From: Candidatus Bruticola sp.
GTDB lineage: Bacteria; Vulcanimicrobiota; Xenobia; Xenobiales; Xenobiaceae
DNA: 64,000 nucleotides
Assembly: GCA_051874735.1 (NCBI GenBank)
Contig: JBJEGD010000026.1
Coordinates: forward strand, 91,452 to 155,451
Direction of reading: 5' to 3'
Part shown: positions 1,069-57,486 of the stretch, piece by piece
Layout: each line of letters begins with the position of its first letter
How positions within the stretch are numbered: the first letter of the stretch is position 1
Position numbers and translations under genes: made by a program
The notes under the pieces: generated by a model
What the model saw: the letters and a program-made list of their open reading frames with translations, nothing else
Told to the model about the DNA's origin: nothing
Database searches by the model: none

Positions 1069-1214
1069 TTTAGCTGATTTTATAACTTTAGTATAAACTA
1101 GTGGTGGGGGACTGCAGGGGCTCTTCGTTTGCATAGCATCGGTGGGTCCCTGTGCTTTTTATGGTTCGGTTGAGTTCGTTCTTTAGCAAATAATTATTTT
1201 TAGAGGTGAACTTT

Positions 1215-31171: not shown

Positions 31172-31184
31172 TTGAGGTGTTTTT

Positions 31185-32624: not shown

Positions 32625-32633
32625 GAGGTCGCA

Positions 32634-33194: not shown

Positions 33195-33214
33195 AAATGC
33201 GGAGGATAAACAGG

Positions 33215-34613: not shown

Positions 34614-36458
34614 ATGAGAAAATATAATTTATGGGCCTTAATTTTGGCTTTTGTAGTCTTTTATTCCGCTGCTCTGTCATCTGCCTGGGCTGCTGATGTA
34701 ATGCTGGGAGGCCAGGTTATCTTTCGTATAAATGATGAGGATCAAGCAAAAAAAATATCCCAAAAAATTGAAGCTATGTTGCAGAGGGGGGCTTCTTCGT
34801 CTTCAATTAAAGTCGTACGTAAAGATATTGCTGTAGCCTCGGAGGGGCAAGATAAGCAAGATAAAGATGAAGGTAGCAAGGGAGGGGCTAAAGCGAAAAA
34901 ATCTGTTTATAAAATATTTTGGGGAAGTGAATTAGTCATTGAAGTGAATGACGAAATTGCCAAGCAGAATGCTTCTTCTCCAGAAGCTTTAGCTAATTTA
35001 TGGGCCTCCAATATGCGCAATGTCGTCGATATTGGCCTGTTGAATGTTGATGTTGCTAGAGTCGTTTTACCTATAGAGGCTGATAAGGTTATTTACGCTT
35101 CTGGTTTGGCAACCGGTCCTTTGAGTGCTGAAGAGACTTCAGGTATCGTTGATATTGATATCGATCAGGAAAACGGCCTTATTAAGATAAAAGGGCGCAG
35201 GGTTGGAAAGTCGTCTATCGTTATTAGCAAAGGGGTTGCCTCCGTTTCCGTTTTTGTGCAGGTGAAAGATTGGGCCGGCAAACTTCCTCAGACGGTTAAT
35301 GTTGAAGTAACTGGCAATCCTGCACAGATTGATGACGTTTCCCAGGCGGTTATGCTTTCCATAGCGGCTAATACTTTCGTTCAGCCAGGCTGCAGTGTTT
35401 ATGTTGATGATTCCAACTTTAAACCGATTCCGGTGAGTAAAGGCGACAGTATGCGCTTAAGCGTGCCTGTGGGTATAAATGCTTCGGAAGATTATTTTGC
35501 GCTTCGCGGCAATGTTAATGTTGTAGTTAGCAATATAGAAGCTCCTGTAGTTGAGCAGAATCTGCTTCTAGTCAGCAATCGGCCGGAGCGTGTCAGCACA
35601 GATGGAGTATTAATGAAGTATAACTTCAAGAGACGTGAGCCCAGTCGTCTTATGTTCTCCCATCTTAATGCTTCCGAAAAGAATCGTTATTTGTGGATAA
35701 ATTTAGCTAATTTAAATGACGAACCGATAAAGATTGTTATCAGTCGCACTTCTGCTGGACCTGAGCGCAGCGAAATTTATGTCGGCCAAACGGCTGCCAA
35801 GCGCTTTTTAGAAAATTTGGCCAGTCGTTCCGGCTATATCATTACTCTTCCGCCCAATTCTGCTTTAGAGCTCTGTTCTTATGTGATGCGTCCTGAAGCT
35901 TTGGTAAGTGGATTTATAAATTTCCAAATTTTGGAAGGTACTAGCGCGACCGTTGAAGTGCGCAGTTCATTAAATCCTAATGCTAACGATGGACGTCCTC
36001 TGCCAGAAATAGGGGCCCCTTTTAATCCTTTCAAAATACATCCTCACGGAGTTTTTGCTCAGCCTTATTTTGAAAATGAAGGTGAATTTGTTATAGGTGG
36101 CAGTCCTTTAACTTTTCGTTATGGTGAGAGTCCTTGGCTGATTGATTTTGAAACTGGGCTGCCCAACACTGGCAATTTCGGGGTTTTGTATAAATCTTTG
36201 GTAGAATTAAAAAATCCTACTAAGCGTACAAAAACTGTGGGACTTTACTTTACGCCTTTGTCCGGCCCTGGCGGTGCTAACTTCCTGATAGGCAATTCTG
36301 TTTATCAGGCAGTTTTCCGCAAAAAAGGTGATGAAGTACTTGTAGCTAAAATCGAACTCTCGCCAGAGTCTAGCAGTATAATTGAAATTGTCACTTTACC
36401 TGAGGCGACTTCCTGTTATCCTGCCCAGTATGAATTGCGTGAACTGGACGGGCGCTGA
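34614..36458 (+). CDS. secreted 614-aa protein of unknown function
   Basis: Signal peptide MRKYNLWALILAFVVFYSAALSSAWA. It has its own terminator. No family recognised. Confidence 0.7.
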   Translation: MRKYNLWALILAFVVFYSAALSSAWAADVMLGGQVIFRINDEDQAKKISQKIEAMLQRGASSSSIKVVRKDIAVASEGQDKQDKDEGSKGGAKAKKSVYKIFWGSELVIEVNDEIAKQNASSPEALANLWASNMRNVVDIGLLNVDVARVVLPIEADKVIYASGLATGPLSAEETSGIVDIDIDQENGLIKIKGRRVGKSSIVISKGVASVSVFVQVKDWAGKLPQTVNVEVTGNPAQIDDVSQAVMLSIAANTFVQPGCSVYVDDSNFKPIPVSKGDSMRLSVPVGINASEDYFALRGNVNVVVSNIEAPVVEQNLLLVSNRPERVSTDGVLMKYNFKRREPSRLMFSHLNASEKNRYLWINLANLNDEPIKIVISRTSAGPERSEIYVGQTAAKRFLENLASRSGYIITLPPNSALELCSYVMRPEALVSGFINFQILEGTSATVEVRSSLNPNANDGRPLPEIGAPFNPFKIHPHGVFAQPYFENEGEFVIGGSPLTFRYGESPWLIDFETGLPNTGNFGVLYKSLVELKNPTKRTKTVGLYFTPLSGPGGANFLIGNSVYQAVFRKKGDEVLVAKIELSPESSSIIEIVTLPEATSCYPAQYELRELDGR

Positions 36459-37912: not shown

Positions 37913-38028
37913 AAGGCGAACGCACGACCGTTTGCGGCTAGCTGTAGGAAATTTGCCATATACAGACGAAATTATAAACCGTTTTGTGTTCGCTTTTGCA
38001 TAGAGACAAAAATTGGAGGATAAGCATT

Positions 38029-38967
38029 ATGAAGCCGATTAAAGTTGGCGTGGTCGGCATTGGTAGTATGGGGAAAAACCATGCTCGAGTGTGCGCCGAA
38101 CTACCTCAAATTGAACTTACAGGCATGGTGGATCTCGATGAAGCCAGAGTCGCCCCTTTAGCTCAGCAGTACGGCACACAGTATTATAAAGATTATAAGA
38201 GTCTCTATGGCAAAATCGACGCTGTAGTTATTGTTGCACCTACACCGCTTCACTATCAAATCGCTCAAGATTTTTTGGAACAGGGCGTTCATGTCTTGGT
38301 AGAAAAGCCCATTACTGTAGAGGTAAGCGAGGCTAAACGGTTAGTGACTTCCGCTAAGGAAAAAAATCTTGTTCTGCAGGTAGGTCATTTGGAGCGTTTC
38401 AATCCAGCCGTAATAAAGCTTAAGCAGATGGTGAGCAAACCTGTGTTAATAGAATGCCACCGCCTTTCTGGGCCTACTACTCGCAGTCTCGATGTCGGTA
38501 TTATTTGGGATTTAATGATCCACGATTTTGATATACTTCTCAGTTTATATAAATCTCCAGTAGCCGAAATCCATGCTATGGGGACTTCTATCTATTCTAA
38601 ATTTGAAGATGTAGCTCACGTGCAAATGCGGTTTGAATGTGGGGCTGTAGCCAGTTTGGTAGCTAGTCGCAATTCCGGAGAAAGGAAGCGCAGTCTCAAA
38701 ATTACTGAAGATACCGGACGAGTTTTGTCTCTCGATTTTATTAACCAAACTTTAGTTATTTCTCGTCCTGGCCCCGATGGGCGTCCCCTAGATTTGGAGC
38801 CAGTTCACATCGAGAAAGAGGAACCTCTACGTTTGGAACTCAGCAATTTTGCAGATTGTGTGATTAATCACAAGGAACCTGTTGTATCCGGTGAGGATGG
38901 CAAGCGAGCTTTGGAATTAGCTGTTCACGTTTTGGAGAATATGCAAAAAATTACGCTTTCTAAGTAA
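38029..38967 (+). CDS. Gfo/Idh/MocA-family NAD(P)-dependent oxidoreductase (GnnA-like position)
   Basis: ATG at 38029 follows GGAGG. Rossmann N-terminus IKVGVVGIGSMGKNHA and an EKP motif (LVEKPIT). It lies between fabZ and lpxA. Confidence 0.85.
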   Translation: MKPIKVGVVGIGSMGKNHARVCAELPQIELTGMVDLDEARVAPLAQQYGTQYYKDYKSLYGKIDAVVIVAPTPLHYQIAQDFLEQGVHVLVEKPITVEVSEAKRLVTSAKEKNLVLQVGHLERFNPAVIKLKQMVSKPVLIECHRLSGPTTRSLDVGIIWDLMIHDFDILLSLYKSPVAEIHAMGTSIYSKFEDVAHVQMRFECGAVASLVASRNSGERKRSLKITEDTGRVLSLDFINQTLVISRPGPDGRPLDLEPVHIEKEEPLRLELSNFADCVINHKEPVVSGEDGKRALELAVHVLENMQKITLSK

Positions 38968-39017: not shown

Positions 39018-39827
39018 GTGATTCATTCCAGCGCTATAGTACATCCCGGGGCACGCATCGGTGAGGGAGTAGAAATCGGACCTTTTTCTATTATCGGAGA
39101 AAATGTAGAAATTGGAGACGGAACTAAAATTATGTCTTCTGTCGTCATAGATGGATGGACAACTATAGGCAAAAATAACAAAATTTATCCGGGTGTATCT
39201 ATTGGTCTGGCACCTCAGGATTTCAGTTATAAAGGGCAGCGTTCATTTGTAACTATTGGTGATAATAATGAGTTCCGTGAATATGTGACTATTCATAGGG
39301 CTGCCGATGAAGATGGTATTACTTCTGTGGGTAGCGGCAATCTGCTTATGGCGAATGTACACATCGCTCATAACTGCCATATTGGTAGTCAAATTACTAT
39401 GGCTAATTATGCTGGTTTGGCTGGTCATACTGTAGTAGAAGATCAGGCGGTATTAGGTGGGCTTGTAGGTATCCATCAGCACACCCGCATCGGTCGTTTG
39501 TGTATGGTAGGCGGATGCTCCAAGATAAATAAAGATTTGCCGCCCTTCAGTATTGTCGATGGTAATCCTTGTCGTCTCTTTGGTATGAATTTCCGAGGCA
39601 TGCGGCGCCGTGACATTTCTAAGGAAAGTCGTTTAGCTGTTCATAAAGCTATCAATATTTTGGGCAGTTGTGGACTGACCTTAGACGCCGCTATAGAACG
39701 CATAGACAGTGAGTTGGAGCATACCCCTGAAATTGAACATTTCCTGACTTTCCTGCGCGGTGATTCTCATATGGGAGTTCTCAATAAAGCCGGCAACGTA
39801 GGGGCGAGAGCTCACAGTAACGCTTAA
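39018..39827 (+). CDS. lpxA: acyl-ACP:UDP-GlcNAc O-acyltransferase
   Basis: GTG follows AGAGG. It has an IHSSAIVHPGARIGEGVEIGPFSIIG hexapeptide start, a catalytic-region HIAHNCHIG and a C-terminal helical domain. Confidence 0.9.
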   Translation: MIHSSAIVHPGARIGEGVEIGPFSIIGENVEIGDGTKIMSSVVIDGWTTIGKNNKIYPGVSIGLAPQDFSYKGQRSFVTIGDNNEFREYVTIHRAADEDGITSVGSGNLLMANVHIAHNCHIGSQITMANYAGLAGHTVVEDQAVLGGLVGIHQHTRIGRLCMVGGCSKINKDLPPFSIVDGNPCRLFGMNFRGMRRRDISKESRLAVHKAINILGSCGLTLDAAIERIDSELEHTPEIEHFLTFLRGDSHMGVLNKAGNVGARAHSNA

Positions 39828-39838
39828 TTGGTGCAGCT

Positions 39839-42286
39839 TTGACTGAAAATAGTCAGCAACAATCATCTGCTTATCCTCAGTTGACGGTTGCGATAATCGC
39901 CATAGAGCCTTCTGCCGATCTTCATGGAAGCAATTTGGCTAGGGCTCTTTTGGCGATTAATCCGCATCTAAAACTGGTCGGCGTAGGCGGATCGCATATG
40001 GCCGCGTCGGGAGTCAGTCTGTGGTTAAGGACCACAGACATGGCAGTTATTGGTCCCGGCGGGGCTATTGCTCGTTTGCCTAAATATATATGTTACTATT
40101 TGTACGTGCGCAGGCATTTGCTTAAGGAACATCCTCACCTCAGCATTTTAATAGACTGCCCCGCCGTTAACATGCGTTATGCTGGTCTTTTGACTCGCTA
40201 TGGCTATCATTCTGTTTATTACTTTCCCCCTTCTGCCTGGACAACCAGCGAAGTGCGTCTTAGACAGATTTTTAGCCGCACAGATAGGGTAATTTGTACC
40301 TTCTTGAGCAATGCCGAAAATTATCGCCGTCTGGGTATGGATGTAGATTTCTTCGGCCATCCTCTTATCGATATGCCCGAGTTAGGAATTTCTGCAGAAG
40401 AAGCTAAAAACAAGTTGGGGCTGGTAGGCGAAAATATTTTGGCTTTACTTCCGGGCAGTCGTGCTTCAGAAATAAAGTATCTATTGCCGATTTTTTTAGA
40501 AATAGTTGCTAAGTTGCATCAAGAAATAGAAAATTTGCAGGTACTTGTACCTTGTGCAACTCAGGCGCTTCGCAGGCAAATAGTTGCCTATATGGGGGAT
40601 AGGTTCCCTTATGTGCGTGTTTTAAATGGGCAGTCTCGTTTAGCCCTTTTAGCTTGTCGAGCAGCGTTGATGAGCTCTGGCACAGCTAGCCTGGAAGCTG
40701 CGATATTAGGCGCCCCAATGGTTCTGTCTTATAAACTTTGTCCCTTCGATGCTGTTATAGGTAAGTTCCTGATTTGGAGTGGTTTATTAAAAATTGAGCA
40801 TATCGGGTTGCCCAGTTTGGTCGCTGGACATCGCATTGTTCCAGAGTTTGTTCAAGATGAAGTTTCACCTGAAAATATTATCCCTCATTTGCGCAATTTT
40901 ATGCGAGATACTCCTGAGCGGTGCCAAATAAAACAAGATCTTTTAGATATGAGGAAGTCCATGGGCGCTCCTGGAGTAATTACCAAGATAGCCTCTTCTT
41001 TATATAGTCGCATTGAGAGCAGTGCTGCTGAAAGGATGGCTGAACCTTTCGACATTGTTATAACATCTAATTCTCCTGGAGAGGTGTCCACGTGGGTGCG
41101 ACGCACTGTTGCTCAGTTGGAGGTTAAAAACAAAGGGCAGTTTAGAGTTATAGTAGCGTTAGTTCCATGTCCTTATGCTTCCGGAGCTGAAGCTGAAGTC
41201 GCCGCTTCTCTGCCAGGCGTTTCCATTGTTCTGACGCCTAGTCAGACTGTGCGTTTAATGTGCGGCATGTTCAACGATTTTGAGCTGCGTAAAAAGGGAG
41301 TAGTAGTATTTTTAGGCGGTGATCTTATTCACGCTAAAATTTTGGCTTGGCGTTTAAAATATCGCTCTATAGCCTATGCAGCTAGATACAACAGGCTAAT
41401 CTACTATTTTGATAAAGTCGCTGCTTCAGATATTTCACTGGCCTCTGAATTATTAGAAGCTGGAGTTAATGAAGTTGTTAATATAGGTAATTTAAGTATT
41501 GATGGGGTTATTTCTGAAGTTGATAGGGAAGCAGCTGATAAAGTATCCCGTAGAACTGGCTTGAAGATTGGCATTTTCCCAGGATCGCGTTTTCTGCATA
41601 CTAAGATCGCTCTAGGAGTGTTTTTGCGTGTAGCTGCTCTAATAAAAACGCGTCACCCTGAGGTTGAATTTGTCCTTTCTGTATCGCCTTTTCTTTCCCC
41701 AGCTCGGCTGGAATCGGCACTTTGTAATCCTTTTAGTTTGGGGCTTCCGGTAGCTAAGGGTAAATTGCTCAGTGCTGATCGCATTGCAGTTGAGTGTATG
41801 TATGAAGATGAACAGGCTGCAGGACGCAGTTTTGAAGTTGAAGTTTTGTGGGGCCATCCTTATCAAGCTATTGCAGAAATAGATATGGCACTTACCATTC
41901 CGGGAACGAATACTGGAGAGTTGGGGTGTTGCGGCAAACCTATGGTAGTAGGACTTTCTGCTGATGCTTCCCTGCCCAGAGGAGGTTTGGGCGGCTTATT
42001 TGAAAGGATGCCAGTTTTATCAAAACTTAAGAGTTATTTGCGCTTGCGTTCTTATGCGCGTCACGGTTTCGCTGCGATCCCTAACCGTATTGCTTCTAGA
42101 GCTATCGTTCCTGAAGTTTTAGTAAAAAAAGATACGTCTGTGCTGGCCCAGCCTATTTTAGAGTGGATTGAAACTCCTGAGAAGTACGCCCGTGTTTCCC
42201 AAGATTTAAAAGACACTATGAGAACGACAGAGGGAGCGGGCAAGCGCATGGCTGAGTTGATCCTGGGTTTGGTTGATTCTAAATAA
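39839..42286 (+). CDS. lpxB: lipid-A-disaccharide synthase fused to a second LpxB-related GT-B module
   Basis: TTG start. Residues about 15-395 look like LpxB (IEPSADLHG..., YYFPPSAW, FFGHPLID, LLPGSRASE, GTASLEAAILGAPMV). Residues about 400-815 form a second module (ITSNSPGEVS, IFPGSRFLH, PGTNTGELGCCGKPMVV). Confidence 0.8.
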   Translation: MTENSQQQSSAYPQLTVAIIAIEPSADLHGSNLARALLAINPHLKLVGVGGSHMAASGVSLWLRTTDMAVIGPGGAIARLPKYICYYLYVRRHLLKEHPHLSILIDCPAVNMRYAGLLTRYGYHSVYYFPPSAWTTSEVRLRQIFSRTDRVICTFLSNAENYRRLGMDVDFFGHPLIDMPELGISAEEAKNKLGLVGENILALLPGSRASEIKYLLPIFLEIVAKLHQEIENLQVLVPCATQALRRQIVAYMGDRFPYVRVLNGQSRLALLACRAALMSSGTASLEAAILGAPMVLSYKLCPFDAVIGKFLIWSGLLKIEHIGLPSLVAGHRIVPEFVQDEVSPENIIPHLRNFMRDTPERCQIKQDLLDMRKSMGAPGVITKIASSLYSRIESSAAERMAEPFDIVITSNSPGEVSTWVRRTVAQLEVKNKGQFRVIVALVPCPYASGAEAEVAASLPGVSIVLTPSQTVRLMCGMFNDFELRKKGVVVFLGGDLIHAKILAWRLKYRSIAYAARYNRLIYYFDKVAASDISLASELLEAGVNEVVNIGNLSIDGVISEVDREAADKVSRRTGLKIGIFPGSRFLHTKIALGVFLRVAALIKTRHPEVEFVLSVSPFLSPARLESALCNPFSLGLPVAKGKLLSADRIAVECMYEDEQAAGRSFEVEVLWGHPYQAIAEIDMALTIPGTNTGELGCCGKPMVVGLSADASLPRGGLGGLFERMPVLSKLKSYLRLRSYARHGFAAIPNRIASRAIVPEVLVKKDTSVLAQPILEWIETPEKYARVSQDLKDTMRTTEGAGKRMAELILGLVDSK

Positions 42287-42287
42287 T

Positions 42288-42941
42288 ATGAAAATTCCTA
42301 ATGAAAATTGCCAAAATATTGCTACTCCTTTTATTTTCAAGTGGCGAGGCTTGATTATGGCAGTAGTGACGGCTATCATACTGGCTGCTGCCAAGCCAAC
42401 TTTAGTTACCTGCTGCTGGGGAATTGGCTTTGTACTTTTAGGAGAGCTGTTGCGTTCATGGGCTTTGGGCTGGACTGGAGAACATACACGTAGTCAGGAA
42501 TTAATGGCGTCTTTTTTAGTTACTGGCGGTCCTTATAAATACATACGCAATCCACTGTACTTAGGCAATATTTTAAACGGATTTGGGGTTATGGTTGCTG
42601 CTTCTGGAGCTATGTCGTATTTGGGAACGGCTGCTTTGTGGGCTTTTGGTCTTCTATCTCTTTATATGGTTTATGCTTCATGTATAATCGCTGAAGAAGC
42701 TTTCTTGGCTATGCGTTTTGGTGATCTCTTCTTCCGCTACAGAGCAGTTACGCCGACCATTGTACCGCGTTGGGGAGATTATCTCGATTTTATAAGCAGT
42801 TTTTTCAATTTCTCTTCCTGTACAGATGTTCAATATGAAGGGAGAGGCTTCTTCTCTTGGCAATCTTTAAAATTTGAATATAGTACTTGGGGATGGATAA
42901 TTGCTGTTTGGTCTTGTTTATTTATAAAAGCTTTCATGTAA
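42288..42941 (+). CDS. ICMT/Ste14-like membrane methyltransferase family protein
   Basis: The ATG at 42288 begins immediately after the lpxB stop. The protein is multi-TM and has GPYKYIRNPLYLGNIL, the family signature. Confidence 0.7.
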   Translation: MKIPNENCQNIATPFIFKWRGLIMAVVTAIILAAAKPTLVTCCWGIGFVLLGELLRSWALGWTGEHTRSQELMASFLVTGGPYKYIRNPLYLGNILNGFGVMVAASGAMSYLGTAALWAFGLLSLYMVYASCIIAEEAFLAMRFGDLFFRYRAVTPTIVPRWGDYLDFISSFFNFSSCTDVQYEGRGFFSWQSLKFEYSTWGWIIAVWSCLFIKAFM

Positions 42942-43026: not shown

Positions 43027-44202
43027 TTAAGGCCGCATGGAAATCTCGGTTAAAATTTGAGCCATGCGGGCTGCTCCTCCGGGAGGGCCTAGTCTCTCTT
43101 GGCCGATAGATCCGCGCCGTTGCCGATCAGCTTTGTCTTGCATTAGGCGACATAGAGTTTCGATTATATCGGGATCGTAATCTTCACAAACAATAAGAGC
43201 CTCACCGAGCAGCCCCTTTTGTCTGGCCCTATACCACTTTAAACGAGTCTCTCCGCCTGGTTCATAAGCAACAACAGGAATACCGTGACCAGCCGCTTGT
43301 TCATGTGCTGTGCCCGCCAATCCTAGAGCGACTTGACTGTATTTTAGTACATCAGCTAGATGGCCTTTGATAAGAAAGAACTGAACTTGATACTCCGCCT
43401 TGTTGTCTGCAAGTTTAAGTTCGCTCCAACCCGGATAAGGTGCTTCGTTCATAACAAAACCCGGACAGGCCTGTGCTAACTTTGAGGTATCAATAGATGG
43501 AGCTACGGCAATAAAGGCACAAATTTTCTTATTTAAGCGTTGAGACAGCTGGCAACTTATTTCTAAAAGGCGAGGCAGTACCCTGTAAGTAGCTTGTCTG
43601 CTGCCGGGAAAGAGAGCTAGGCCTATTTCTTTGCTGCTGTCTAGACTGAAGTCCAGTTCTTGAGGAACCAAACCATCCATCATAGCATTACCTACCCAGA
43701 TAGCTTTAACTCCTTTTTGACGCAGACTGGCAGCTGTAGGTTCATCTCGGACAATAGAGCGAACTTTGAAAGTTCTCAGAACCCAAGCTTCTAGAGCTGA
43801 GTAAGGATGATGATAGTCAGATTTAGCCGTGCCAATGAAGGTTATTGGGCGTATACCAGATAGGGCAGCTAGAATAACTGGCCAAAGATCGCCGACAGCG
43901 GCAATGTGATTGAAACGGTGACGATTTGAGCGCAGCCAAAACAGCTGTTTTAAAGTTAAATAGGCTAAGCCGCCGCCAAGATCTTTCCAAAAATTACGCC
44001 AATCTTCTTGAATAAGGCCGCCGCTGGGCATGTCGCTGACAGGGCCGTTTATGGGAGCTATTCCTTTGTACGCTGAGCCTTCTCCAACCAAAGGTAAAGC
44101 TTCTATATCGATTGATTTAGGCAGCTCCTTAATTATCTGGGCAGCTATGGAATCTTCACCGGCTCCGTTAGATACAAGTAAAAGGCGTTGAGGGGCGGGC
44201 AT
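43027..44202 (-). CDS. LpxB-related GT-B glycosyltransferase (lipid-A-disaccharide synthase-related type)
   Basis: ATG at 44202 follows AAGGAGAG. It has LLLVSNGAGEDSIAAQII, LFPGSRQAT and GLAGTAHEQAAGHGIPVV, the same architecture as the second module of the lpxB fusion. Confidence 0.7.
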   Translation of the reverse strand: MPAPQRLLLVSNGAGEDSIAAQIIKELPKSIDIEALPLVGEGSAYKGIAPINGPVSDMPSGGLIQEDWRNFWKDLGGGLAYLTLKQLFWLRSNRHRFNHIAAVGDLWPVILAALSGIRPITFIGTAKSDYHHPYSALEAWVLRTFKVRSIVRDEPTAASLRQKGVKAIWVGNAMMDGLVPQELDFSLDSSKEIGLALFPGSRQATYRVLPRLLEISCQLSQRLNKKICAFIAVAPSIDTSKLAQACPGFVMNEAPYPGWSELKLADNKAEYQVQFFLIKGHLADVLKYSQVALGLAGTAHEQAAGHGIPVVAYEPGGETRLKWYRARQKGLLGEALIVCEDYDPDIIETLCRLMQDKADRQRRGSIGQERLGPPGGAARMAQILTEISMRP

Positions 44203-44234
44203 AATCTCTCCTTTTAAGTTTTTTAGCAGCAAAT

Positions 44235-45080
44235 TTAAGCTAAACTTATCAACTTACAGTGACTTAGCTGTGGATTATCCATATTGTATTCAATTTCATT
44301 TATATGTTTGGCGAATGCACCAGTTTGTACAATAAAAGAACCATTAACTTGACAAGGTGAGTCCAGTTGGGTATGGGTATGGCCTCCTAAAATCCAGGTG
44401 CCTGGCGGCGTATTAACCGCCAATTGCTGATCTCGGTCAAAACCTATGTGACTGATGATAACTAAATTAGTTCTTAGACCTAATTTAGCTGAGCAGCGAT
44501 CAGCTATCTGAGGCAAAGTTGTCTCTGCTTTGAAAAAACGAAAACCAAATATTTTTTCCCATATGGCATTATGAGGGTATTGCACCGGCATGGCTGATAA
44601 AATCAGCAAGGCACAATTTGAGCTCCAAGAGCTGTTAAAAAGCGCCAGACCGGGAATCCAGCGCTCTGAGGATAGTTCTTGCCAGGCCGAGGAGTTACGC
44701 CAGTTAGCAGAACTGCAGTCTATTATTGGTATATCTTGAATTTGCTCGACAAATTCGCGCTGAGTTAAATGACCACTAAGACGTATATCAGACAAATTAG
44801 TACAGATAAGCGGAAAAGAACGCTGTCTAGCTCTTTTGTCTAGAATACGCCTTTGATAATTGAACTCTCGATTGCCCATAGCCATGGCTGCGCAGCCGAC
44901 AGAACTCATTTTATCTAAGTTTGGTTCAAAGTTTTTCCATACTGTGTTAGAACCGATTAGAGCGTCGCCGCTGTCAAAATAAAGGGCTTGACCTGCGGCT
45001 ATAGAGGCCTGGGCCTGGCTTTTGAGCCAAGCCAAAGCCTCGCTGCGTCCGTGCATATCGTTGGTATGATAAATAATCAT
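44235..45080 (-). CDS. UshA-type calcineurin-like metallophosphoesterase (N-domain only, 281 aa)
   Basis: Motifs YHTNDMHGR, DSGDALIGS, GNREF, ISHIG and GGHTH. Arg replaces the usual His of the GNHE motif. Confidence 0.8.
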   Translation of the reverse strand: MIIYHTNDMHGRSEALAWLKSQAQASIAAGQALYFDSGDALIGSNTVWKNFEPNLDKMSSVGCAAMAMGNREFNYQRRILDKRARQRSFPLICTNLSDIRLSGHLTQREFVEQIQDIPIIDCSSANWRNSSAWQELSSERWIPGLALFNSSWSSNCALLILSAMPVQYPHNAIWEKIFGFRFFKAETTLPQIADRCSAKLGLRTNLVIISHIGFDRDQQLAVNTPPGTWILGGHTHTQLDSPCQVNGSFIVQTGAFAKHINEIEYNMDNPQLSHCKLISLA

Positions 45081-45105: not shown

Positions 45106-45678
45106 TCAATTTTTGCTTCGCTGGGAAACTTTTGAGCTTCTTTCCTGAGCTACTTCGGTATAGACTTGACGGTAGCGATCTATTCCTATATATCTACAAA
45201 TTACTATACCGTAACCTATTATCCAACCGACTCCAGCTAGAGAAGCACCACCCAAACATACCCCTAATATTAAACCAATGCATCCGAAAATTAAACTGTT
45301 TAGCATAGGCTTAGAATCTAGTGATATTGAGTAACCTAAAGAAAGCCCAATAATAGCTCCCACTAGTCCGTAGTAACTACCTTTGCCTATATCTGCAGCC
45401 GTGGTTGCAATAGCCAAACTCGCTTTAGCTGCCTGCACAAGTGAATATTCAGACTGGCCAGCATCGATAATGGAGTTCGCTCCCCACAAGAATCCCATCA
45501 TCAGTCCCATGCCGGCGAAGCAGAGGCAGTACAAAGTCCTCTGTTGTTTGGTAAGAAAAGTTACAGACTGTTCTGTATTACTAGTCTTATTCGCGGTAGA
45601 CGATGAATTTTTTTTATCTTGCTTAGCGTTTTTCTTTTCTTTTTTTTTGCTGTCTTTGAGAGACGCCGGATCACTCAT
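45106..45678 (-). CDS. membrane protein with a Lys-rich N-terminus and Gly-zipper TM segments
   Basis: It has KKKEKKNAKQDKKNSS followed by about 4 Gly/Ala-rich hydrophobic segments. It overlaps the upstream gene by 8 nt. Confidence 0.6.
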   Translation of the reverse strand: MSDPASLKDSKKKEKKNAKQDKKNSSSTANKTSNTEQSVTFLTKQQRTLYCLCFAGMGLMMGFLWGANSIIDAGQSEYSLVQAAKASLAIATTAADIGKGSYYGLVGAIIGLSLGYSISLDSKPMLNSLIFGCIGLILGVCLGGASLAGVGWIIGYGIVICRYIGIDRYRQVYTEVAQERSSKVSQRSKN

Positions 45679-46654
45679 GTTTTTTATCTTTGTCCTTCAG
45701 AGATAATTTTGCCAATTTTTTTATTTGCTCCCATTTTTTTAAAGGAAGCTGACGCATCGCAATTTGGCGCATCGATACTTTATGTGCTTGAACGGGATCG
45801 CCGGACCACACTGACTGACCGGCTGGAATATCTTTATCCACGCCCGATCTAGCTGCTACTGTGGCAAAATCGCCGATATGACGCCCTTCTTTTACCAAGC
45901 ATTGGCCGGCGGCTATGGATAATTTTCCAATATAAGCTCTCTCCTGCAGACAGTTTTGAGAAATAATTATAGCCATAGGCTCTATAATAGATTCTTTGTT
46001 AATGCAGGCTAAATTGTCTATGCGCACTCCTTGATGAATAAGTGCTTTCCTGCCTATAAAGCAGCGAGCACCTATTTCAATATCACTTCCCAAAGAAGCT
46101 TCATCTTCGATAATGGTTAGCGGCCCTACTAAACTTGAACCTTCCAATTTTACTTTTTTCCCTAAAGAAACTCCGGGCATCAATTTAGTGTCAGCTCCTA
46201 CAAAGCTGTCGCTATCTATGCTGACATGAGCTTGAATTTGGCAGTTATCGCCAATGGTTACTCCATCTGCTATAACGGCAAAGGGGCCTATATAGGCTGT
46301 AGGAGATATGTTGGCAGAATCGCTTATGCAAGCACTTTCGTGTATCCCCGGCTTAAAGCGAAAAGGAGGATAATACAAATCGAGGAGCTTAGCATAGGCT
46401 ACTCGAGAATTTTTCACTAATATAGCCGGAATATTTGTTTGTATTTTTTCGGGTATAATTACTGCAGCAAAGCCGAGGTGCACTGCTTCTTGTAGTGAAC
46501 TTTCGTCTTCAGCGAAAGTAATTGCCGAGTTTAGATTGTGACTTAAAGCTGCGTCCATACCTGTGACTTCTTTTATAACCAGAGAAGCACTTTCCGGTAT
46601 GTTCAGACGACCTTCAAGATAATCGGCCAGCTCTTTTAAGTTCTTTACCACCAT
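45671..46654 (-). CDS. LpxD-like acyltransferase paralogue (full-length architecture, catalytic His position is Lys)
   Basis: The N-terminus is like the LpxD uridine-binding domain (LKELADYLEGRL...ITFAEDESSLQEA...AVIIPE). It has LbH repeats. The region IDNLACINKESII aligns to E. coli IDNQCQIAHNVVI. Confidence 0.75.
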   Translation of the reverse strand: MVVKNLKELADYLEGRLNIPESASLVIKEVTGMDAALSHNLNSAITFAEDESSLQEAVHLGFAAVIIPEKIQTNIPAILVKNSRVAYAKLLDLYYPPFRFKPGIHESACISDSANISPTAYIGPFAVIADGVTIGDNCQIQAHVSIDSDSFVGADTKLMPGVSLGKKVKLEGSSLVGPLTIIEDEASLGSDIEIGARCFIGRKALIHQGVRIDNLACINKESIIEPMAIIISQNCLQERAYIGKLSIAAGQCLVKEGRHIGDFATVAARSGVDKDIPAGQSVWSGDPVQAHKVSMRQIAMRQLPLKKWEQIKKLAKLSLKDKDKKHE

Positions 46655-47964
46655 AATTCAGGATAATCACTCCAAGTTTCTGCCGGATCTATATCCGCTT
46701 CTTCTAATGTTAGACTGCGTACAGCCAAGGGAACGCACATGGTACGCCCGTTCAAAACTGATTCATAACCTAAACCTATCAAGTCTGCTCCCAAGAGATC
46801 GGTGTAGTTAGCCCTGACAATAAACTGGGGCACTCGGCAAATAGGGCGGCCGTGGTGCAGCAAGAAAGCTGTCTCGCATCGCCTAGCAAACTGTCCCTCT
46901 TTTTTCAGGTGACTAGGAAGAGGAGTCAACCTGTCCAATAAAATGCCAAAGTCTGTCTTAGCGCATAATTCGCCTAAAGAATAGTCTCCGCCTTTGAGAA
47001 TTAAATTAGAATGACCAGGTTTAGGTGGCTGTCCCCAAGGACGCACTGCCGAACCGTTAGGTACAACTCCGCAGGCTCTCGCTGTGCTTAAATCGTAAAT
47101 GCCGCCTACTAGTTCGCCTTGGCGTATTAGTGGTAGTGATGTTTTAGTAATTCCTTCACCGTCAAAAGGTACACTGCCAAAGCCTCTGGGTAAAGACGCA
47201 TCATCCGTTATATTTATGCAAGGGGACAGCCACGGAGAATTTTTGGGTAAAGATTTAAAAAGCGGTGCATCAGCATAAAGCATTTCTTTGGCGAAATCTT
47301 CGAGTAATTTACCGCAGGCGCTCGATGTAAATACGCCAGGAATCGTATTGCTATCTGGCCAGGCCATCTCTGTGGAATGTACGGAACGCCAGGTTAACCT
47401 GCAGAGCATTTCTGCAGGAGAATGCTGAGCAGAAGTACTGTAGATGGCGTCTCCCACAGGTATACCGTCGTTGGAGTTTAAAGTTAGCAGATGTAGAATG
47501 CGGCTGGCACAGCGCTCTCCGCTTCTAGTTGTGATTTTTAACGTATGCTGCAATAACCTGGCACTAAGAGAAAAACGCCTGTTGGGCAACAAAGAAGGAA
47601 GCATAAAATCAAGCCCTTGAATTAAGGCTTTAAAATGCATAATTGAATCTTCGAGTTGTTGCGAAGTTTCAGAGATGTTGGAAACTGAGGTAGGAGAAAT
47701 TAAGCCCTTTTGTGAGAATGAACCGCGCTTGCCGTTGGCCGCACTTTGGGCAGCTTTCTGTAGTAAATCGCTAATGGAAAATTCTCCCTCAGACCAAACA
47801 TAACCAAGACGTCCGTCTATATTTATTCTGAGCCCTAGTCCGGGTTTAAATATACGCTGATCAGGCTGAGCTAAGTTGACTTCTGTATAAACTTCTTCGG
47901 AAACTTCAGCATCTCTGGCCATACCGAGTGCTTTGACCAGCAGTTGATTTGCATAACTGGCCAT
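46645..47964 (-). CDS. TldD/PmbA-fold protein (PmbA-like, no HExxxH)
   Basis: The GSVPFDGEGITKTSLPLIRQGELVGGIYDL block is typical of the family. No HExxxH motif is present anywhere. Confidence 0.8.
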   Translation of the reverse strand: MASYANQLLVKALGMARDAEVSEEVYTEVNLAQPDQRIFKPGLGLRINIDGRLGYVWSEGEFSISDLLQKAAQSAANGKRGSFSQKGLISPTSVSNISETSQQLEDSIMHFKALIQGLDFMLPSLLPNRRFSLSARLLQHTLKITTRSGERCASRILHLLTLNSNDGIPVGDAIYSTSAQHSPAEMLCRLTWRSVHSTEMAWPDSNTIPGVFTSSACGKLLEDFAKEMLYADAPLFKSLPKNSPWLSPCINITDDASLPRGFGSVPFDGEGITKTSLPLIRQGELVGGIYDLSTARACGVVPNGSAVRPWGQPPKPGHSNLILKGGDYSLGELCAKTDFGILLDRLTPLPSHLKKEGQFARRCETAFLLHHGRPICRVPQFIVRANYTDLLGADLIGLGYESVLNGRTMCVPLAVRSLTLEEADIDPAETWSDYPELWW

Positions 47965-47966
47965 AG

Positions 47967-48614
47967 TTATTCTTTATTTCCCAAAATCAGTATATTATAG
48001 GGCAGTACTTCCATATCTGATAGAAGTTTTTGATAATTTGGTTCGCATATAGACGTGCTGTTTTCATTAGGAAGCTTAAGCAACCAAAGTTGCTCCACAG
48101 AGTCAACTTGACTAACTTCGGCGCCATTAATAGCTGCCCACTGTCTGGCTACTCTTCGGCTGTTTTGAGCATCCAGATATAAGAAGCAGTATTGTAGGTT
48201 CTGTTTTGTAACTATTTTTACGAAACTTTCTAATCCGGAAGCAGAGTCCTGAGCAGAAGCTCCCCGCAAATCTAGACATGGAGTTCCTTTAAATACAGAA
48301 GCTTGAGAATGAGTTAATTTTGTTAATAGATCTGATTTCAGATGTTTTGAACTTTGAGAATGATTTTGGGAGGCTTCAGGAAGAGTGCTGTAATTATTTA
48401 AAACAACCTCAGCTTGAGGATCTAAATAGCGTCTTAAGGTGCCCTGCAGTCCTTTAACTAGAAAGGCCGTTGGCAATCCGGGAGCAAAGCGCTCCAGACT
48501 GACATTTAATCTATTTAATTCTTTATCGAAACTAAAGCTTGTGAAACGTACCCCCTCATCATTAAAAGTTTTAGTCAATTTATTTAAAATTTCCTCAGGG
48601 GTATACTTATCCAT
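47967..48614 (-). CDS. hypothetical protein (first gene of the operon)
   Basis: 215-aa ORF with an AAAGGA RBS. It ends 2 nt before the next start. No family recognised. Confidence 0.6.
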   Translation of the reverse strand: MDKYTPEEILNKLTKTFNDEGVRFTSFSFDKELNRLNVSLERFAPGLPTAFLVKGLQGTLRRYLDPQAEVVLNNYSTLPEASQNHSQSSKHLKSDLLTKLTHSQASVFKGTPCLDLRGASAQDSASGLESFVKIVTKQNLQYCFLYLDAQNSRRVARQWAAINGAEVSQVDSVEQLWLLKLPNENSTSICEPNYQKLLSDMEVLPYNILILGNKE

Positions 48615-48827: not shown

Positions 48828-50597
48828 TTAGAAAACGGCTGTACCTGGATCTGTTTTAGCTTGCTGGTAAAAATCTTGCCAGAGTTTTTTCTCATTGTTC
48901 ATGCGTTCAACGCTGACATTTTTACTCTTAATTTTTGCGACTATGTCTTGCCGACTGCGTTCTACTTCTTTGAAACGACCTGGTTTCCAAGCGTACTCGT
49001 CAAGATTGTATATATCGCGGTTGCGGTACTCTCCCACTTTATAAAGGACAGCGTAATTTTTTTCCATGTAGTACAAAGTTTCAAACGAAAAAGGATTAAG
49101 TTTGTTAGCTTTTTCGAAACACTGAGCTGCATCGTAGAAATAACTCTCTACAGGACGGTTTTTATCCTGAGCTTTATCGCCTTTGCGTAAGCGCTCGTAT
49201 CGGTATATACCCGCCCTTAAGTAACTTTGCCCTTGATTAAATTTAAATGAGGAATAAGTCCAGAAGCCAAGAGCGACAGCTATGATTAAAGGTCCTATCA
49301 CCAGAGCGAAGATGCTAGCTGCTTTATATGTGGCGGTGGAGTCTCCTTTGTCTTTGGGGGCATTACCGGACACAATGCGCTCTCTGGCAGCATAAAAATC
49401 TTGTTCTATAGTTTCTTTAGTTTTGGAAGCTAAAGCCCTTATTTTAGCTTCGTATCGGTTAGAAGCCATGATTTTTGTGCATATATCGGAGGCCGCTTCT
49501 AAAAAACCAGAGTGACCGATCTCTTCAGCCATTAACAGCCAATCCTCAGGATCGCTGCTGGTAATTTCGTGAATAACTTCACCTGGGCGAATGGAATCAT
49601 CTAGTTCCAACGCTTTGGAAAAATGGACTGCTGCTCTTTCTGGTTCGCCTATGGCCATAGAACATAGGCCTAAGCCATAGTGAGCATCAATATTATTAGG
49701 GAAGCGTTTCAGACTATTCTGAATATCAAAGTGCAGCTCTGAGAATTTTCCTTTGTCGAAAAGCTCAAGCTGTTCTTCCGTAAAAATATTGGCGATTTTG
49801 CGGGAAGTTACTGGAATTTTAGGAGTTGTCGACTGAGAGTTTTGCTCAGCTTCGACCTTTACTACATTTTGGGATACCGAAGGAGTTGCGGGCGGTACCG
49901 TAGGCTGCGAAGATAGCTGTGCTGACCTTTCTGTTGGTATATTCGCAGAGGTTGGGGCTGTCTGAGGATATCCCGGCTGCATAGGTCTGGGCTGGGGCGG
50001 TCTGCCTCCCGGTGTACCTGCGAGCACGGGAGCAGACTGAGGGTATCCCGTCTGCATAGGTCTGGGCTGGGGCGGTCTGCCTCCCGGTGTACCTGCGAGC
50101 ACGGGAGCAGACTGAGGGTATCCCGTCTGCATAGGTCTGGGCTGAGGCGGTCTGCCTCCTGGTGTACCTGCGGGCATGGGAGCAGACTGAGGATATCCCG
50201 TATGCGTAGGTCTGGGCTGAGGCGGTCTTCCTCCTGGTGTACCTGCGGGCATAGGAGCAGACTGAGGATATCCCGTCTGCATAGGTCTGGGCTGAGGCGG
50301 TCTTCCTCCTGGTGTACCTGCAGGCATGGGAGCAGACTGAGGATATCCCGTCTGCATAGGTCTGGGCTGAGGTAGTCTTCCTCCTGGCGTATTTAAAGGC
50401 ATGGGAGCAGACTGAGGGTGTCCCGGATGCATGGGGCTAGGCTGGGGGGGACGGGGAGTATAGCTTTGCCTTGATGAATACGGTTGAGATGTACTGGGAA
50501 TTGCAGTTTGAGCACTGAAATTATCCGCAGGAGTACCCTGGCTATCCTGCTGGTCTTGTAGTGTTAAATTGCTGCGCGGAGGCATTTGCATGCTCAC
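48828..50597 (-). CDS. single-pass membrane protein with an N-terminal Pro/Gln-rich tandem repeat, a TPR-like segment, a TM segment and a C-terminal domain
   Basis: GTG start follows AAGGA. It has six or more units of PMQTGYPQSAPMPAGTPGGRPPQPR, a TPR-like AHYGLGLCSMAIGEPERAAVHFSKALELD and TM segment IFALVIGPLIIAVALGFWTY. Confidence 0.75.
   Translation of the reverse strand: MSMQMPPRSNLTLQDQQDSQGTPADNFSAQTAIPSTSQPYSSRQSYTPRPPQPSPMHPGHPQSAPMPLNTPGGRLPQPRPMQTGYPQSAPMPAGTPGGRPPQPRPMQTGYPQSAPMPAGTPGGRPPQPRPTHTGYPQSAPMPAGTPGGRPPQPRPMQTGYPQSAPVLAGTPGGRPPQPRPMQTGYPQSAPVLAGTPGGRPPQPRPMQPGYPQTAPTSANIPTERSAQLSSQPTVPPATPSVSQNVVKVEAEQNSQSTTPKIPVTSRKIANIFTEEQLELFDKGKFSELHFDIQNSLKRFPNNIDAHYGLGLCSMAIGEPERAAVHFSKALELDDSIRPGEVIHEITSSDPEDWLLMAEEIGHSGFLEAASDICTKIMASNRYEAKIRALASKTKETIEQDFYAARERIVSGNAPKDKGDSTATYKAASIFALVIGPLIIAVALGFWTYSSFKFNQGQSYLRAGIYRYERLRKGDKAQDKNRPVESYFYDAAQCFEKANKLNPFSFETLYYMEKNYAVLYKVGEYRNRDIYNLDEYAWKPGRFKEVERSRQDIVAKIKSKNVSVERMNNEKKLWQDFYQQAKTDPGTAVF
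49981..50430 (-). repeat. 75-bp head-to-tail coding tandem repeat, six copies plus degenerate flanks
   Basis: Units begin (a/g)taggtctgggct at 49981, 50056, 50131, 50206, 50281 and 50356. The first two units are identical by eye, and partial copies sit at both ends. Confidence 0.9.
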
Positions 50598-55413: not shown

Positions 55414-57486
55414 GTGTACAGAGGTGCTAAAGTGCATTTTAAAGAGAAAAATACGGGGTACAGTTTCTCATTTGGTTCAAAGTTTGGCAGAAGAGTGGCG
55501 TTTTTTTGTTCTCTTTTAGCCTTAGGAGGGACAGCGCAGGCTCAATCTGTCAATCCTTCCATTGATAATACCGCTAGTCCAAATTTTTATCGTCAACAAT
55601 CGGCGGTTTACGAGAAATGTGATGAACTTTTGGCCTCTGCTGAACAGCCGGAAATACAGTTGCGTGTTAATAAGAAAAACACACCTGCCGCTGTGGGAAC
55701 CCCTGAATACAATTATCAGCTGGCTAAGAAGTATTACGATGAAAAAGTTTATTATAAAGCTATTAAATTCTTTACTCAGGCGGCCGAAGGCGGTCATATT
55801 GAAGCACAGAGTTTCTTAGGAAGATGCTATTATGAAGGCAGTGGGGTTGAACGCGATTACTATAAAGCTGCAGAATGGCTTTCTAAAGCTGCCGATCAAG
55901 ATGAACACCTTGCTCAGTACTACATGGGTATGTGCTACGAAAGTGGTTTAGGGGTAGAACAAAGTTTCGATTCTGCAGTTAGTTATTATGAGAGAGCGGC
56001 GTTCGGCGGTGTCCCTGAAGCTCAAAATGCTTTGGGGCGCTACTATTACTTTGGCCGGTGGGTAGATCGCGATTATCATCAGGCTGCTGAGTGGTTTTTG
56101 AGAGCTGCAAATCAGAAGCTTCCCAATGCCATGTATAATTTAGGGGTTTGCTACGATTTAGGGCAGGGAGTAGAAAAAGACCCGCAAAAAGCTGTCGATC
56201 TTTATTTTAGAGCAGCCAACGCTGGTGAGGCCAGTGCGCAGTGCAATTTGGGCATGTGCTATAGCTCCGGATCGGGCGTAGAGAAAAATTTAAATAAGGC
56301 TTTTTTATGGTATCAGCGAGCAGCCGCTAGTGGCAATATTAAGGCTCAAAATAATTTGGGAGTATGCTACAAAAACGGTGAAGGCGTGCAGCGTAATCCG
56401 CGCGAAGCTGCCCGCCTTTTTATAGCTGCTGCTGATCAAGGTTTGGCTGGAGCTCAATATAATGCTGGTTGGTCTTATTTAAATGGTTTCGGCGTCGGAC
56501 GCGATTACAAAAAGGCTTTTGAGTATTTCTCGAATGCTGCAGCTCAAAATTATCCTAAAGCTCAGCTTCAATTAGCTAACCTTTATTATAAAGGTTGCGG
56601 TACTGAACAAGATTATACTGAGGCTGTTCGGTGGTATACTATGGCTGCTAATCACGGTATACCCTCTGCTAAGTACTATTTAGCACGTTGCTATGCTCTA
56701 GGTCAGGGTGGGACCAAAGATTTAGGTAAGGCTGTTGAATTTTACACTGAAGCTGCTGAGGGAGGCGATGGGGAAGCGCAAACTCAGTTGGGACTCTGCT
56801 ACAGAAACGGCATTGTCGTATCCCAGGATTACGCTGAAGCTGCCAAATTGTTTGAGAAAGCTGCTGCCCAAAATATACCTGAAGCTCAGGCTTATTTGGG
56901 AGTAGCCTATCTTTTGGGAGAAGGTATTCAAGCCGATTATCAAGAGGCTTATAAACTTTTATCTAAAGCGGCTGACAGAGGAAATGCTTTAGCCGACTAT
57001 GCGTTGGGTTGCATGTTCTATGAAGGGTTGGGAGTGCAGAAAAACTTTAGTAGAAGCATAAGTCATTGGAACAATGTGGCTCGCAGCGGTTATGCAGAAG
57101 CACAAAATAATTTAGGATACTGCTACTATTACGGACGGGCAAGCGAACAGAACGAGCAAAAGGCCCTGAAGTGGTGGCGTCGGGCAGCTGATCAAGGCTG
57201 GGCTAATGCTGAAAATGCCTTAGGTGTGGCTTATTTTACTGGAATAGTAGTAAACGTAAATTATCCGATTGCTCAGGAGTGGTTTAAAAAAGCGGCAGAG
57301 CACGGCGATCCTGAGGGAGAGAAGAATTTCGCCATAATGCAGGGGGCCGATTTAGAGACGATGCCTACATTGACAGATCTTGTAAATCTGAAGTTCGATT
57401 ATAGGCCTGCTTCCGAAATCGAAAAGTTTATTAAGACATATGAGGAACGGGTGAAAACAACGGAACAGACTGGAGAATCAAGTTAA
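55414..57486 (+). CDS. secreted Sel1 (SLR) repeat protein, about 15 or more repeats
   Basis: Signal peptide. The recurrent pattern A..WY.KAA.QG...AQ..LG.CY..G.GV..D runs throughout. Confidence 0.85.
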   Translation: MYRGAKVHFKEKNTGYSFSFGSKFGRRVAFFCSLLALGGTAQAQSVNPSIDNTASPNFYRQQSAVYEKCDELLASAEQPEIQLRVNKKNTPAAVGTPEYNYQLAKKYYDEKVYYKAIKFFTQAAEGGHIEAQSFLGRCYYEGSGVERDYYKAAEWLSKAADQDEHLAQYYMGMCYESGLGVEQSFDSAVSYYERAAFGGVPEAQNALGRYYYFGRWVDRDYHQAAEWFLRAANQKLPNAMYNLGVCYDLGQGVEKDPQKAVDLYFRAANAGEASAQCNLGMCYSSGSGVEKNLNKAFLWYQRAAASGNIKAQNNLGVCYKNGEGVQRNPREAARLFIAAADQGLAGAQYNAGWSYLNGFGVGRDYKKAFEYFSNAAAQNYPKAQLQLANLYYKGCGTEQDYTEAVRWYTMAANHGIPSAKYYLARCYALGQGGTKDLGKAVEFYTEAAEGGDGEAQTQLGLCYRNGIVVSQDYAEAAKLFEKAAAQNIPEAQAYLGVAYLLGEGIQADYQEAYKLLSKAADRGNALADYALGCMFYEGLGVQKNFSRSISHWNNVARSGYAEAQNNLGYCYYYGRASEQNEQKALKWWRRAADQGWANAENALGVAYFTGIVVNVNYPIAQEWFKKAAEHGDPEGEKNFAIMQGADLETMPTLTDLVNLKFDYRPASEIEKFIKTYEERVKTTEQTGESS

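Follow-up and report, generated by a model that had tools for sequence, protein, structure and literature searches.

A long LpxD paralogue without the catalytic histidine and a short LpxD without the uridine-binding domain in Candidatus Bruticola: possible halves of one composite active site

LpxD, an acyltransferase of lipid A synthesis and an antibiotic target, is treated as a self-sufficient homotrimer. According to a review that summarises the C. trachomatis and E. coli structures, its active site is composite: one chain contributes residues of the N-terminal domain, the uracil-stacking Phe and Asp232, which contacts the acyl 3-hydroxyl, and the adjacent chain supplies His239 (the base), Gln/Asn240, Gly257 (the oxyanion hole), His276 (the pyrophosphate contact) and Phe183 (PMC6286764). 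The H239A and H276A substitutions lower kcat about 1000-fold and 32-fold, respectively, and F41A raises the acceptor Km 29-fold (PMC6286764). Here we describe two LpxD-related genes of Candidatus Bruticola sp., a gut bacterium that belongs to the class Xenobia of the uncultured phylum Vulcanimicrobiota (formerly Eremiobacterota). Both lie in a 64,000-nucleotide stretch of contig JBJEGD010000026.1 (assembly GCA_051874735.1, positions 91,452 to 155,451), referred to below as the window, from the first nucleotide of which all coordinates are counted. The longer gene (45671-46654, minus strand, ATG start) encodes a His-less LpxD paralogue of 327 residues, here called L, and the shorter one (33689-34402, plus strand) encodes a 237-residue LpxD, here called S.

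Several described systems resemble this pair in part. Genomes with LpxD1/LpxD2 pairs (e.g., Francisella) carry two lpxD-derived genes, both tied to lipid A synthesis; both products are full-length and catalytically complete, differ in acyl-chain preference and regulation, and lack neither the His nor the N-terminal domain. QdtC (PDB 3FS8), a hexapeptide-repeat trimer, carries out N-acylation without a catalytic His, so the absence of a His is by itself no proof of inactivity. Unlike L, QdtC acts on acetyl-CoA and dTDP-sugars, has no uridine-binding N-terminal domain and is found in an unrelated gene context. LpxA, like S, is a β-helix acyltransferase of the same pathway without an N-terminal uridine-binding domain and is therefore the natural comparison for S; its substrates bind between subunits (PMC6286764). 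It differs from S in that it binds UDP via its own β-helix loops and C-terminal domain, and in that S is an LpxD by sequence. A β-helix heterotrimer with one complete interfacial active site is documented for γCA/γCAL of plant mitochondrial complex I (PMC8290278). As in the S–L arrangement considered below, the trimer consists of β-helix paralogues with interfacial sites, and the loss of active-site residues from one paralogue leaves a single interface complete. The differences are that γCA/γCAL is a zinc carbonic anhydrase in a eukaryotic respiratory complex, that its heterotrimer has been seen by cryo-electron microscopy whereas the S–L trimer is one that we infer, and that the loss is one-sided in γCA/γCAL, while S and L are both incomplete, reciprocally. 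A literature search and the source annotations yielded no description of a His-less LpxD paralogue, of an LpxD without the uridine-binding domain, or of a pairing of both, and a literature search on lipid A of Eremiobacterota gave nothing relevant.

A protein identical to L is recorded from a metagenome-assembled genome (MAG) of Candidatus Bruticola sp. under the NCBI name "DapH/DapD/GlmU-related protein". L matches the NCBIfam LpxD models with E-values of 6e-48 and 7e-42, in an alignment broken into three stretches, and remains under both curated cut-offs (163.7 vs 207 bits for PRK00892 and 143.6 vs 242.5 bits for TIGR01853). Its hexapeptide repeats pass the Pfam thresholds (PF00132, 69.4 bits vs 27; PF14602, 37 vs 27). 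When the L family was aligned with 61 diverse canonical LpxDs, hhalign returned a probability of 100% and E = 8e-74 and covered residues 4-319; together with an invariant uracil-stacking Phe (see below), this upholds the original prediction, made from the DNA sequence alone, that an LpxD-like N-terminal domain is kept, with the Pfam model of that domain at 23.6 bits, under its gathering score of 30.8. The AlphaFold model of L has a mean predicted local distance difference test score (pLDDT) of 86.7, and all of its 25 best Foldseek matches in the PDB are LpxD chains.

By hhalign, AlphaFold and Foldseek, the architecture of L comprises the same three domains as that of LpxD: an N-terminal uridine-binding-type domain (residues 1-100; 46355-46654, minus strand), modelled with a pLDDT of 91-98 and evolving with a ratio of nonsynonymous to synonymous substitution rates (dN/dS) of 0.07-0.15; a left-handed β-helix delimited from the alignments (residues 101-290; 45785-46354, minus strand); and a C-terminal helix with a conserved HKxxMR...LPLKxW motif (residues 291-327; 45674-45784, minus strand), which corresponds to the helical domain of LpxD that recognises the acyl carrier protein (ACP) and forms the trimer bundle. 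These data mark L as an unmistakably LpxD-like three-domain homologue. It is like canonical LpxD (E. coli 3EH0/4IHF, C. trachomatis 2IU8, A. baumannii 4E79) in its domains and in its location at a lipid A cluster, and unlike it in having neither the catalytic-side residues nor the Gly182-Gly199 loop and in scoring under both NCBIfam cut-offs. L is about 30% identical to any canonical LpxD, compared with 32-80% inside its own clade.

The columns conserved in at least 85% of the 61 canonical LpxDs define what has been lost. Catalytic His239 is present in 61/61 of them, and K220 of "RIDNLACINKESIIE" in L (codon at 45995-45997, minus strand) falls on its column in all five alignments made, namely two pairwise phmmer alignments (with the A. 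baumannii and C. trachomatis LpxDs), two MAFFT alignments of canonical LpxDs plus E. coli residues 101-318, and one by hhalign. The original prediction of a Lys at the catalytic position thus stands. A misalignment that hides a nearby His can be ruled out, since the five alignments are concordant and the L family has no conserved His in residues 200-270; no other His takes the catalytic place. The Lys itself is not conserved among orthologues. The column holds D in five, E in three, K in two, and R, N and Q in one each of 13 family sequences; in members farther removed it is occupied by S, A, T, P, G or V, and in neither set by His. Lys220 was therefore rejected as a substitute catalytic residue, and with it the suggestion of an enzyme with Lys-altered chemistry; the oxyanion turn, His276 and the Phe183 loop have gone too.

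These further losses are extensive. Glu238-Arg239 of L (45938-45943, minus strand) replace Gly257 of the oxyanion hole and Ser258, so the "QER" substitution of the GS motif had been read correctly; both positions are variable in the family. Gly257 of L (45884-45886, minus strand) stands at the pyrophosphate-contacting His276, in a column that is G, D, E, S or K. A loop of about 19 residues, "DGFGY...KIPQxG" (Gly182-Phe183-Gly184 ... Pro196-Gln197-x-Gly199), is deleted between codons 185 and 186 of L (46097-46102), as it is in 13/13 family members and in 30/32 distant His-less representatives. In all, the L family has lost His239, Asn240, Gly244, Gly254, Gly257, Ser258, Gly272 and His276, as well as Asn212, Asp216, Arg217 and Thr223. 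Small residues of the acyl groove are exchanged for bulkier invariant ones (Gly254 to Cys, Gly272 to Leu and Gly175 to Leu), and variability within the family peaks in the columns that surround the former catalytic centre, where the top-residue fraction is 0.23-0.38. Judging from these alignments, the canonical catalytic apparatus of L is gone and the Lys is incidental.

The retained residues form an equally distinct set. The L family keeps Phe43 (E. coli Phe41), Glu208, Gly210, Asp232, Asn233, Leu234, Gln252, Gly269 and Gln270. The uracil-stacking residue, Phe47 of L itself (46514-46516, minus strand), is Phe in 13/13 family members and Phe or Tyr in 32/32 distant His-less representatives, and Asp213-Asn214 of L (46013-46018, minus strand), equivalent to Asp232/Asn233, are present in 13/13 and 32/32, respectively. 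In LpxD the two residue sets come from different subunits; of the two sides of the active site, L has therefore lost one entirely and kept the other. Altogether 41 columns are invariant across the family, including residues peculiar to it, Leu179, Arg197, Cys198, Cys235, Leu253, Trp283 and His291, among which the Arg197-Cys198 pair (46061-46066, minus strand) places Arg where canonical LpxD has Asn212.

S shows the opposite pattern. It consists of the β-helix and the C-terminal helix only and aligns to LpxD profile positions 103-332; its score on PRK00892 lies exactly at the cut-off of 207 bits, compared with 79 bits on the LpxA model. No gap separates the gene from the stop codon of the Skp-like gene upstream; it occupies the ancestral post-Skp position, and its 11 orthologues encode 237-244 residues; an overlooked N-terminal domain can be ruled out on both grounds. 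The motifs GFGY, GHN and TGS are retained. The first of these (33950-33961, plus strand) keeps the canonical Gly182-Phe183-Gly184; His145-Asn146 (34121-34126, plus strand) correspond to catalytic His239/Asn240 and are retained in 11/11 sequences; and Gly163-Ser164 (34175-34180, plus strand) correspond to Gly257/Ser258. This agrees with the claim that the short LpxD has the His and no N-terminal domain. The catalytic-side columns conserved in 11/11 short LpxDs are GFG, PQ.G, Asp216, Arg217, Thr223, His239, Asn240, Gly244, Gly254, Gly257, Ser258 and Gly272. Besides the N-terminal domain, S has lost Asp232, Asn233, Leu234, Glu208, Ala211, Gly228, Gly269 and Ala287; the columns of Asn233, Glu208, Gly228 and Gly269 are variable among the 11 sequences, and invariant Asp232/Asn233 are replaced by Gly138-His139 in S (34100-34105, plus strand), with Gly at the Asp232 position in 11/11.

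The losses in S and L are reciprocal. Of the 14 columns with 100% invariance among the 61 canonical LpxDs, none is lost from both proteins; S is without only Asp232 and Asn233, both of which every L sequence contains. This pair of residues is thus invariant in canonical LpxDs, present in every His-less paralogue and gone from every short LpxD. Within the 18-residue coil, the columns lost in L occupy registers 1-10 and those lost in S registers 12-17 plus 0, and in both families these lost columns vary more than background (0.58 and 0.61 vs 0.69). From these column comparisons, one face of each protein appears relaxed and the other constrained.

S and L also co-occur. Both were found in the same assembly in 4/4 cases checked: the present window, one 24,135-nucleotide Logan contig (proteins P0006 and P0122), GCA_012799975.1 (loci L024 and L057) and GCA_017458675.1 (loci L016 and L060). 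Thus, a paralogue lacking interfacial active-site residues co-occurs with one that retains them, as in γCA/γCAL. The dN/dS ratio of L is 0.09-0.12 over the whole protein. By region (N-terminal domain, first coils, former catalytic coils and C-terminal helix) it lies at 0.07-0.19, with values of 0.08-0.16 for the former catalytic coils, and about 20 species-level genomes carry an intact reading frame. L is under strong purifying selection and is not decaying. The suggestion of a pseudo-enzyme or scaffold subunit therefore holds insofar as L no longer has the canonical catalytic apparatus, although it is strongly constrained.

In our opinion, these observations are best explained, tentatively and with somewhat less than even confidence, by a mixed S–L trimer with one composite active site. 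According to this model, L would be a catalytically incompetent descendant of LpxD that supplies the uridine-binding half of the site, and S would supply the catalytic half. The two would co-assemble via their β-helices, so that a single interface, formed by the catalytic face of S and the uridine-binding face of L, would constitute a complete LpxD site, and this interface would perform the N-acylation of a lipid A precursor of the UDP-3-acyl-glucosamine type, probably of the 2,3-diamino-glucose (GlcN3N) type. Four observations fall into place under this model: the losses are reciprocal, Phe47 and Asp213/Asn214 have been retained under purifying selection, S and L co-occur, and the genes have a lipid A context. 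Among the three interpretations offered in the original prediction, half of a split LpxD is the best supported, all the more as S has also lost the Asp232/Asn233 pair that L keeps.

It should be noted that a number of points speak against the mixed trimer. A count test of complementarity was not significant, with 6 columns lost in both proteins vs 8.6 expected under independence; statistical support for complementarity rests on the identity of the residues involved, not on counts. Moreover, Asn212 is lost in S and L alike, and His276 is replaced by Arg in S (Arg182; 34232-34234, plus strand). The earlier description of the pattern as an exact complement therefore goes too far in the word "exact". 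The two genes are never adjacent; they lie 11 kb apart on opposite strands in the window and on separate contigs in two assemblies (GCA_012799975.1 and GCA_017458675.1). Instead of S, it is a PmbA-like gene that accompanies L most constantly, a coupling that the model leaves unexplained. The type of LpxD present in the L-bearing lineages L062, L069 and L070 lies beyond what their loci show. The AlphaFold model of L is weakest (pLDDT 59-71) over residues 200-270, i.e., the former catalytic coils. In a rough neighbour-joining tree, S and L come out as sisters in 1/300 bootstraps. LpxA works without a uridine-binding domain, so S might be self-sufficient as well. Finally, the physical complex, its stoichiometry and the identity of the subunit that binds acyl-ACP are what we infer from the sequences.

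The same tree recovers S and L each as monophyletic in 300/300 bootstraps and leaves their relation to the full-length LpxD of the phylum unresolved. In an Eremiobacteraceae contig, the post-Skp place of S is taken by a full-length LpxD that has both residue sets. The L clade is narrow: its members (P0001-P0014) score from 715 down to 178 bits, and ordinary LpxDs reach 117 bits at most. The family was also sought exhaustively, by profile, among 1.84 billion cluster representatives. Of the top 150, 32 lack the His and 30 of those 32 also lack the loop; His-less representatives number at least 32 at 50% identity. All 32 distant representatives keep Asp232/Asn233 and an aromatic residue at position 43. 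Those with a name are "Vulcanimicrobiota bacterium", "Armatimonadetes bacterium" or "LpxD N-terminal domain-containing protein", and one is labelled Nitrosotenuis, possibly through a binning or labelling error. Going by these sequences and labels, the His-less family extends beyond the Xenobia set. A metagenome scan with P0293 returned only His-containing LpxDs.

L is the third gene of a tightly packed six-gene minus-strand operon. The first gene (47967-48614) encodes a 215-residue protein without a family match, and the second (46645-47964) a divergent PmbA/TldE-like protein of 439 residues, whose 3′ end overlaps the start of L by 10 nucleotides. Pfam recognises only the C-terminal domain of this protein, no HExxxH motif was seen in it by eye, and its clade is as narrow as that of L (1008 down to 265 bits, with ordinary PmbA at 78 bits or less). 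L is followed by genes for a predicted membrane protein of 190 residues (45106-45678), which overlaps its end by 8 nucleotides, a UshA-like metallophosphoesterase of 281 residues (44235-45080) and a 401-residue protein of TIGR03492, "lipid-A-disaccharide synthase-related protein" (43027-44232; 273.7 bits vs a cut-off of 219.2), all on the minus strand. The metallophosphoesterase matches solely the N-terminal catalytic domain of UshA/5′-nucleotidase and SoxB. A promoter and terminator scan of the operon gave counts at or below chance. In all gut Xenobia loci the gene next upstream of the operon encodes a tetratricopeptide repeat protein (589 residues; 48828-50597, minus strand in the window), and another such protein lies near the PmbA-like/L pair in L020; the former could be a LapB-like organiser of lipid A enzymes.

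The operon is convergent with a plus-strand lipid A cluster in the order BamA, four Skp-like genes, S, the gene of a 614-residue protein, LpxC, FabZ, a GnnA-like gene, LpxA, an LpxB fusion and an LmtA-like methyltransferase gene; LptC, LptB and LptFG lie on the other side of the operon. The six-gene arrangement is conserved in gut and rumen Xenobia, and at least nine divergent lineages have L within a lipid A gene cluster or at its end. In L003, L021-L024, L062, L069 and L070, L ends the cluster beside Rce1-like, TIGR03492, metallophosphoesterase and transmembrane protein genes. In these distant lineages the PmbA-like gene is about 3 kb away or absent from the neighbourhood, being non-adjacent in L003, L062, L069 and L070. 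The trio of transmembrane protein, metallophosphoesterase and TIGR03492 genes adjoins L in most lineages, and in L019 and L020 the PmbA-like/L pair alone is kept, amid unrelated genes. Two MAGs labelled "Burkholderiales bacterium" (L021 and L024) carry the Xenobia-type cluster, and one of them, GCA_012799975.1, also has a Xenobium-type short LpxD; either the labels look wrong or the bins are mixed.

This organisation lends itself to a different interpretation, in which L is a stand-alone non-catalytic ligand binder or scaffold that acts with its operon partners and not with S. We consider it doubtful, although it is the best of the alternatives. L might bind a product of the UDP-diacylglucosamine type and present it to the UshA-like metallophosphoesterase and the LpxB-like transferase, or, together with the PmbA-like protein, it might be a sensor or regulator of lipid A synthesis. 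The overlaps with both flanking genes, the persistence of the PmbA-like/L pair outside the lipid A locus, the equal narrowness and divergence of the two clades and the constancy of the adjoining trio are all in keeping with such a role, as is the fact that the metallophosphoesterase has no nucleotide-binding domain of its own. The lipid A cluster has no recognisable LpxH, LpxI or LpxG, and the 281-residue metallophosphoesterase is therefore a candidate for the UDP-2,3-diacylglucosamine hydrolase step. What a binder or scaffold leaves unexplained is why S has lost its N-terminal domain and Asp232/Asn233 in the same lineages, and why L retains exactly Asp232/Asn233 and the N-domain residues; the non-adjacency of the PmbA-like gene in four lineages also tells against it, and we know of no LpxD-derived adaptor. 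The binder or scaffold role would account for the coupling to the PmbA-like gene, and it and the mixed trimer are not mutually exclusive.

A more elaborate version, which we regard as unlikely, makes L the subunit by which a multi-protein machine, acting at the step after LpxD, recognises its substrate, and not, or not only, a partner of S. Such a machine would comprise L as a binder of UDP-diacylglucosamine, a non-proteolytic PmbA/TldE-like scaffold, the membrane protein, the UshA-like metallophosphoesterase and the TIGR03492 LpxB-like transferase. If it exists, it would replace LpxH, LpxI or LpxG and represent a fourth, composite solution to UDP-2,3-diacylglucosamine hydrolysis plus disaccharide formation.

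It is improbable, in our view, that L is an acyltransferase that either needs no general base or uses other residues, in the manner of QdtC, and acylates a different position or sugar nucleotide in a GlcN3N-type lipid A pathway. Purifying selection over the whole of L, including the former catalytic coils, is compatible with an enzyme of this kind, and so are its own invariant residues (Arg197, Cys198, Cys235, Leu253, Trp283 and His291); QdtC is among the PDB sequence and fold matches of L, and, given the GnnA-like gene of the cluster, there should be an additional amine for acylation. Yet QdtC ranks 50th in Foldseek and, in the sequence comparison, has E = 3.4e-8 compared with 2.4e-18 for LpxD; L is not closer to QdtC-type enzymes than to His-dependent ones. 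Together with the His, L has lost the Gly of the oxyanion hole, His276 and the Phe183 loop, and its acyl-donor pocket is not intact, the groove glycines being replaced by Cys and Leu. Moreover, the hypervariability of the former catalytic columns is unlike that of an active site relocated on the same face, and LpxA is present for the 3-position. A decaying pseudogene or functionless remnant of a duplicated lpxD, as the lost catalytic residues and the scores under the curated LpxD cut-offs might suggest, is extremely improbable and effectively excluded by the intact frame in so many genomes, the breadth of the His-less representatives, a dN/dS of about 0.1 in every domain, the conserved synteny and the invariant columns.

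Returning to the cluster as a whole, several of its other genes deserve mention. The window holds three LpxB-like modules. Two are joined in an 815-residue fusion (39839-42286, plus strand) of a genuine LpxB (TIGR00215, 248.6 bits) and a second, faintly LpxB-like half, which is a separate gene of 387-396 residues in other lineages; the third is the TIGR03492 gene, a family for which the literature search found no mention. A genuine LpxA is encoded at 39018-39827. A GnnA-like UDP-GlcNAc 3-dehydrogenase gene (37984-38967, plus strand) and an LmtA/ICMT-like methyltransferase gene (42273-42941, plus strand) lie inside the lipid A cluster and, as far as homology goes, suggest a 2,3-diamino-glucose backbone and a methylated phosphate; a GnnB aminotransferase was not identified among the open reading frames scanned. 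The 614-residue protein (34614-36458, plus strand) has an apparent signal peptide and no family match, and in every Xenobia-type cluster a counterpart, of 576-614 residues in other loci, is encoded between the short LpxD and LpxC. Between BamA and S lie four consecutive genes (30176-33688, plus strand), at least two of which are Skp/OmpH-like and one of which encodes a 479-residue Glu/Lys-rich protein, probably a coiled coil; this arrangement is kept in all Xenobia loci seen. Farther away, the window encodes a 1079-residue fusion (1206-4445, plus strand) of a nucleotidyltransferase, a hexapeptide β-helix and three phosphoglucomutase/phosphomannomutase domains, with a weak match to DUF5752, and a 690-residue protein with 13 Sel1 repeats (413 bits; 55414-57486, plus strand), downstream of LptC, LptB, LptFG and a DUF3084 gene.

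The genes of S and L are labelled "DapH/DapD/GlmU-related", "hypothetical" or "LpxD N-terminal domain-containing protein" by current pipelines, and neither protein alone should be called "LpxD" in these genomes. The findings also draw attention to the uncharacterised genes that travel with lipid A genes in Vulcanimicrobiota, i.e., those of the PmbA-like protein, the UshA-like phosphoesterase and TIGR03492. If the split of LpxD between S and L is real, this would be the first heteromeric LpxD and a natural experiment that separates the uridine-binding and catalytic halves of its site. It would also provide a natural example of gene duplication followed by complementary loss across an active site formed at a subunit interface.

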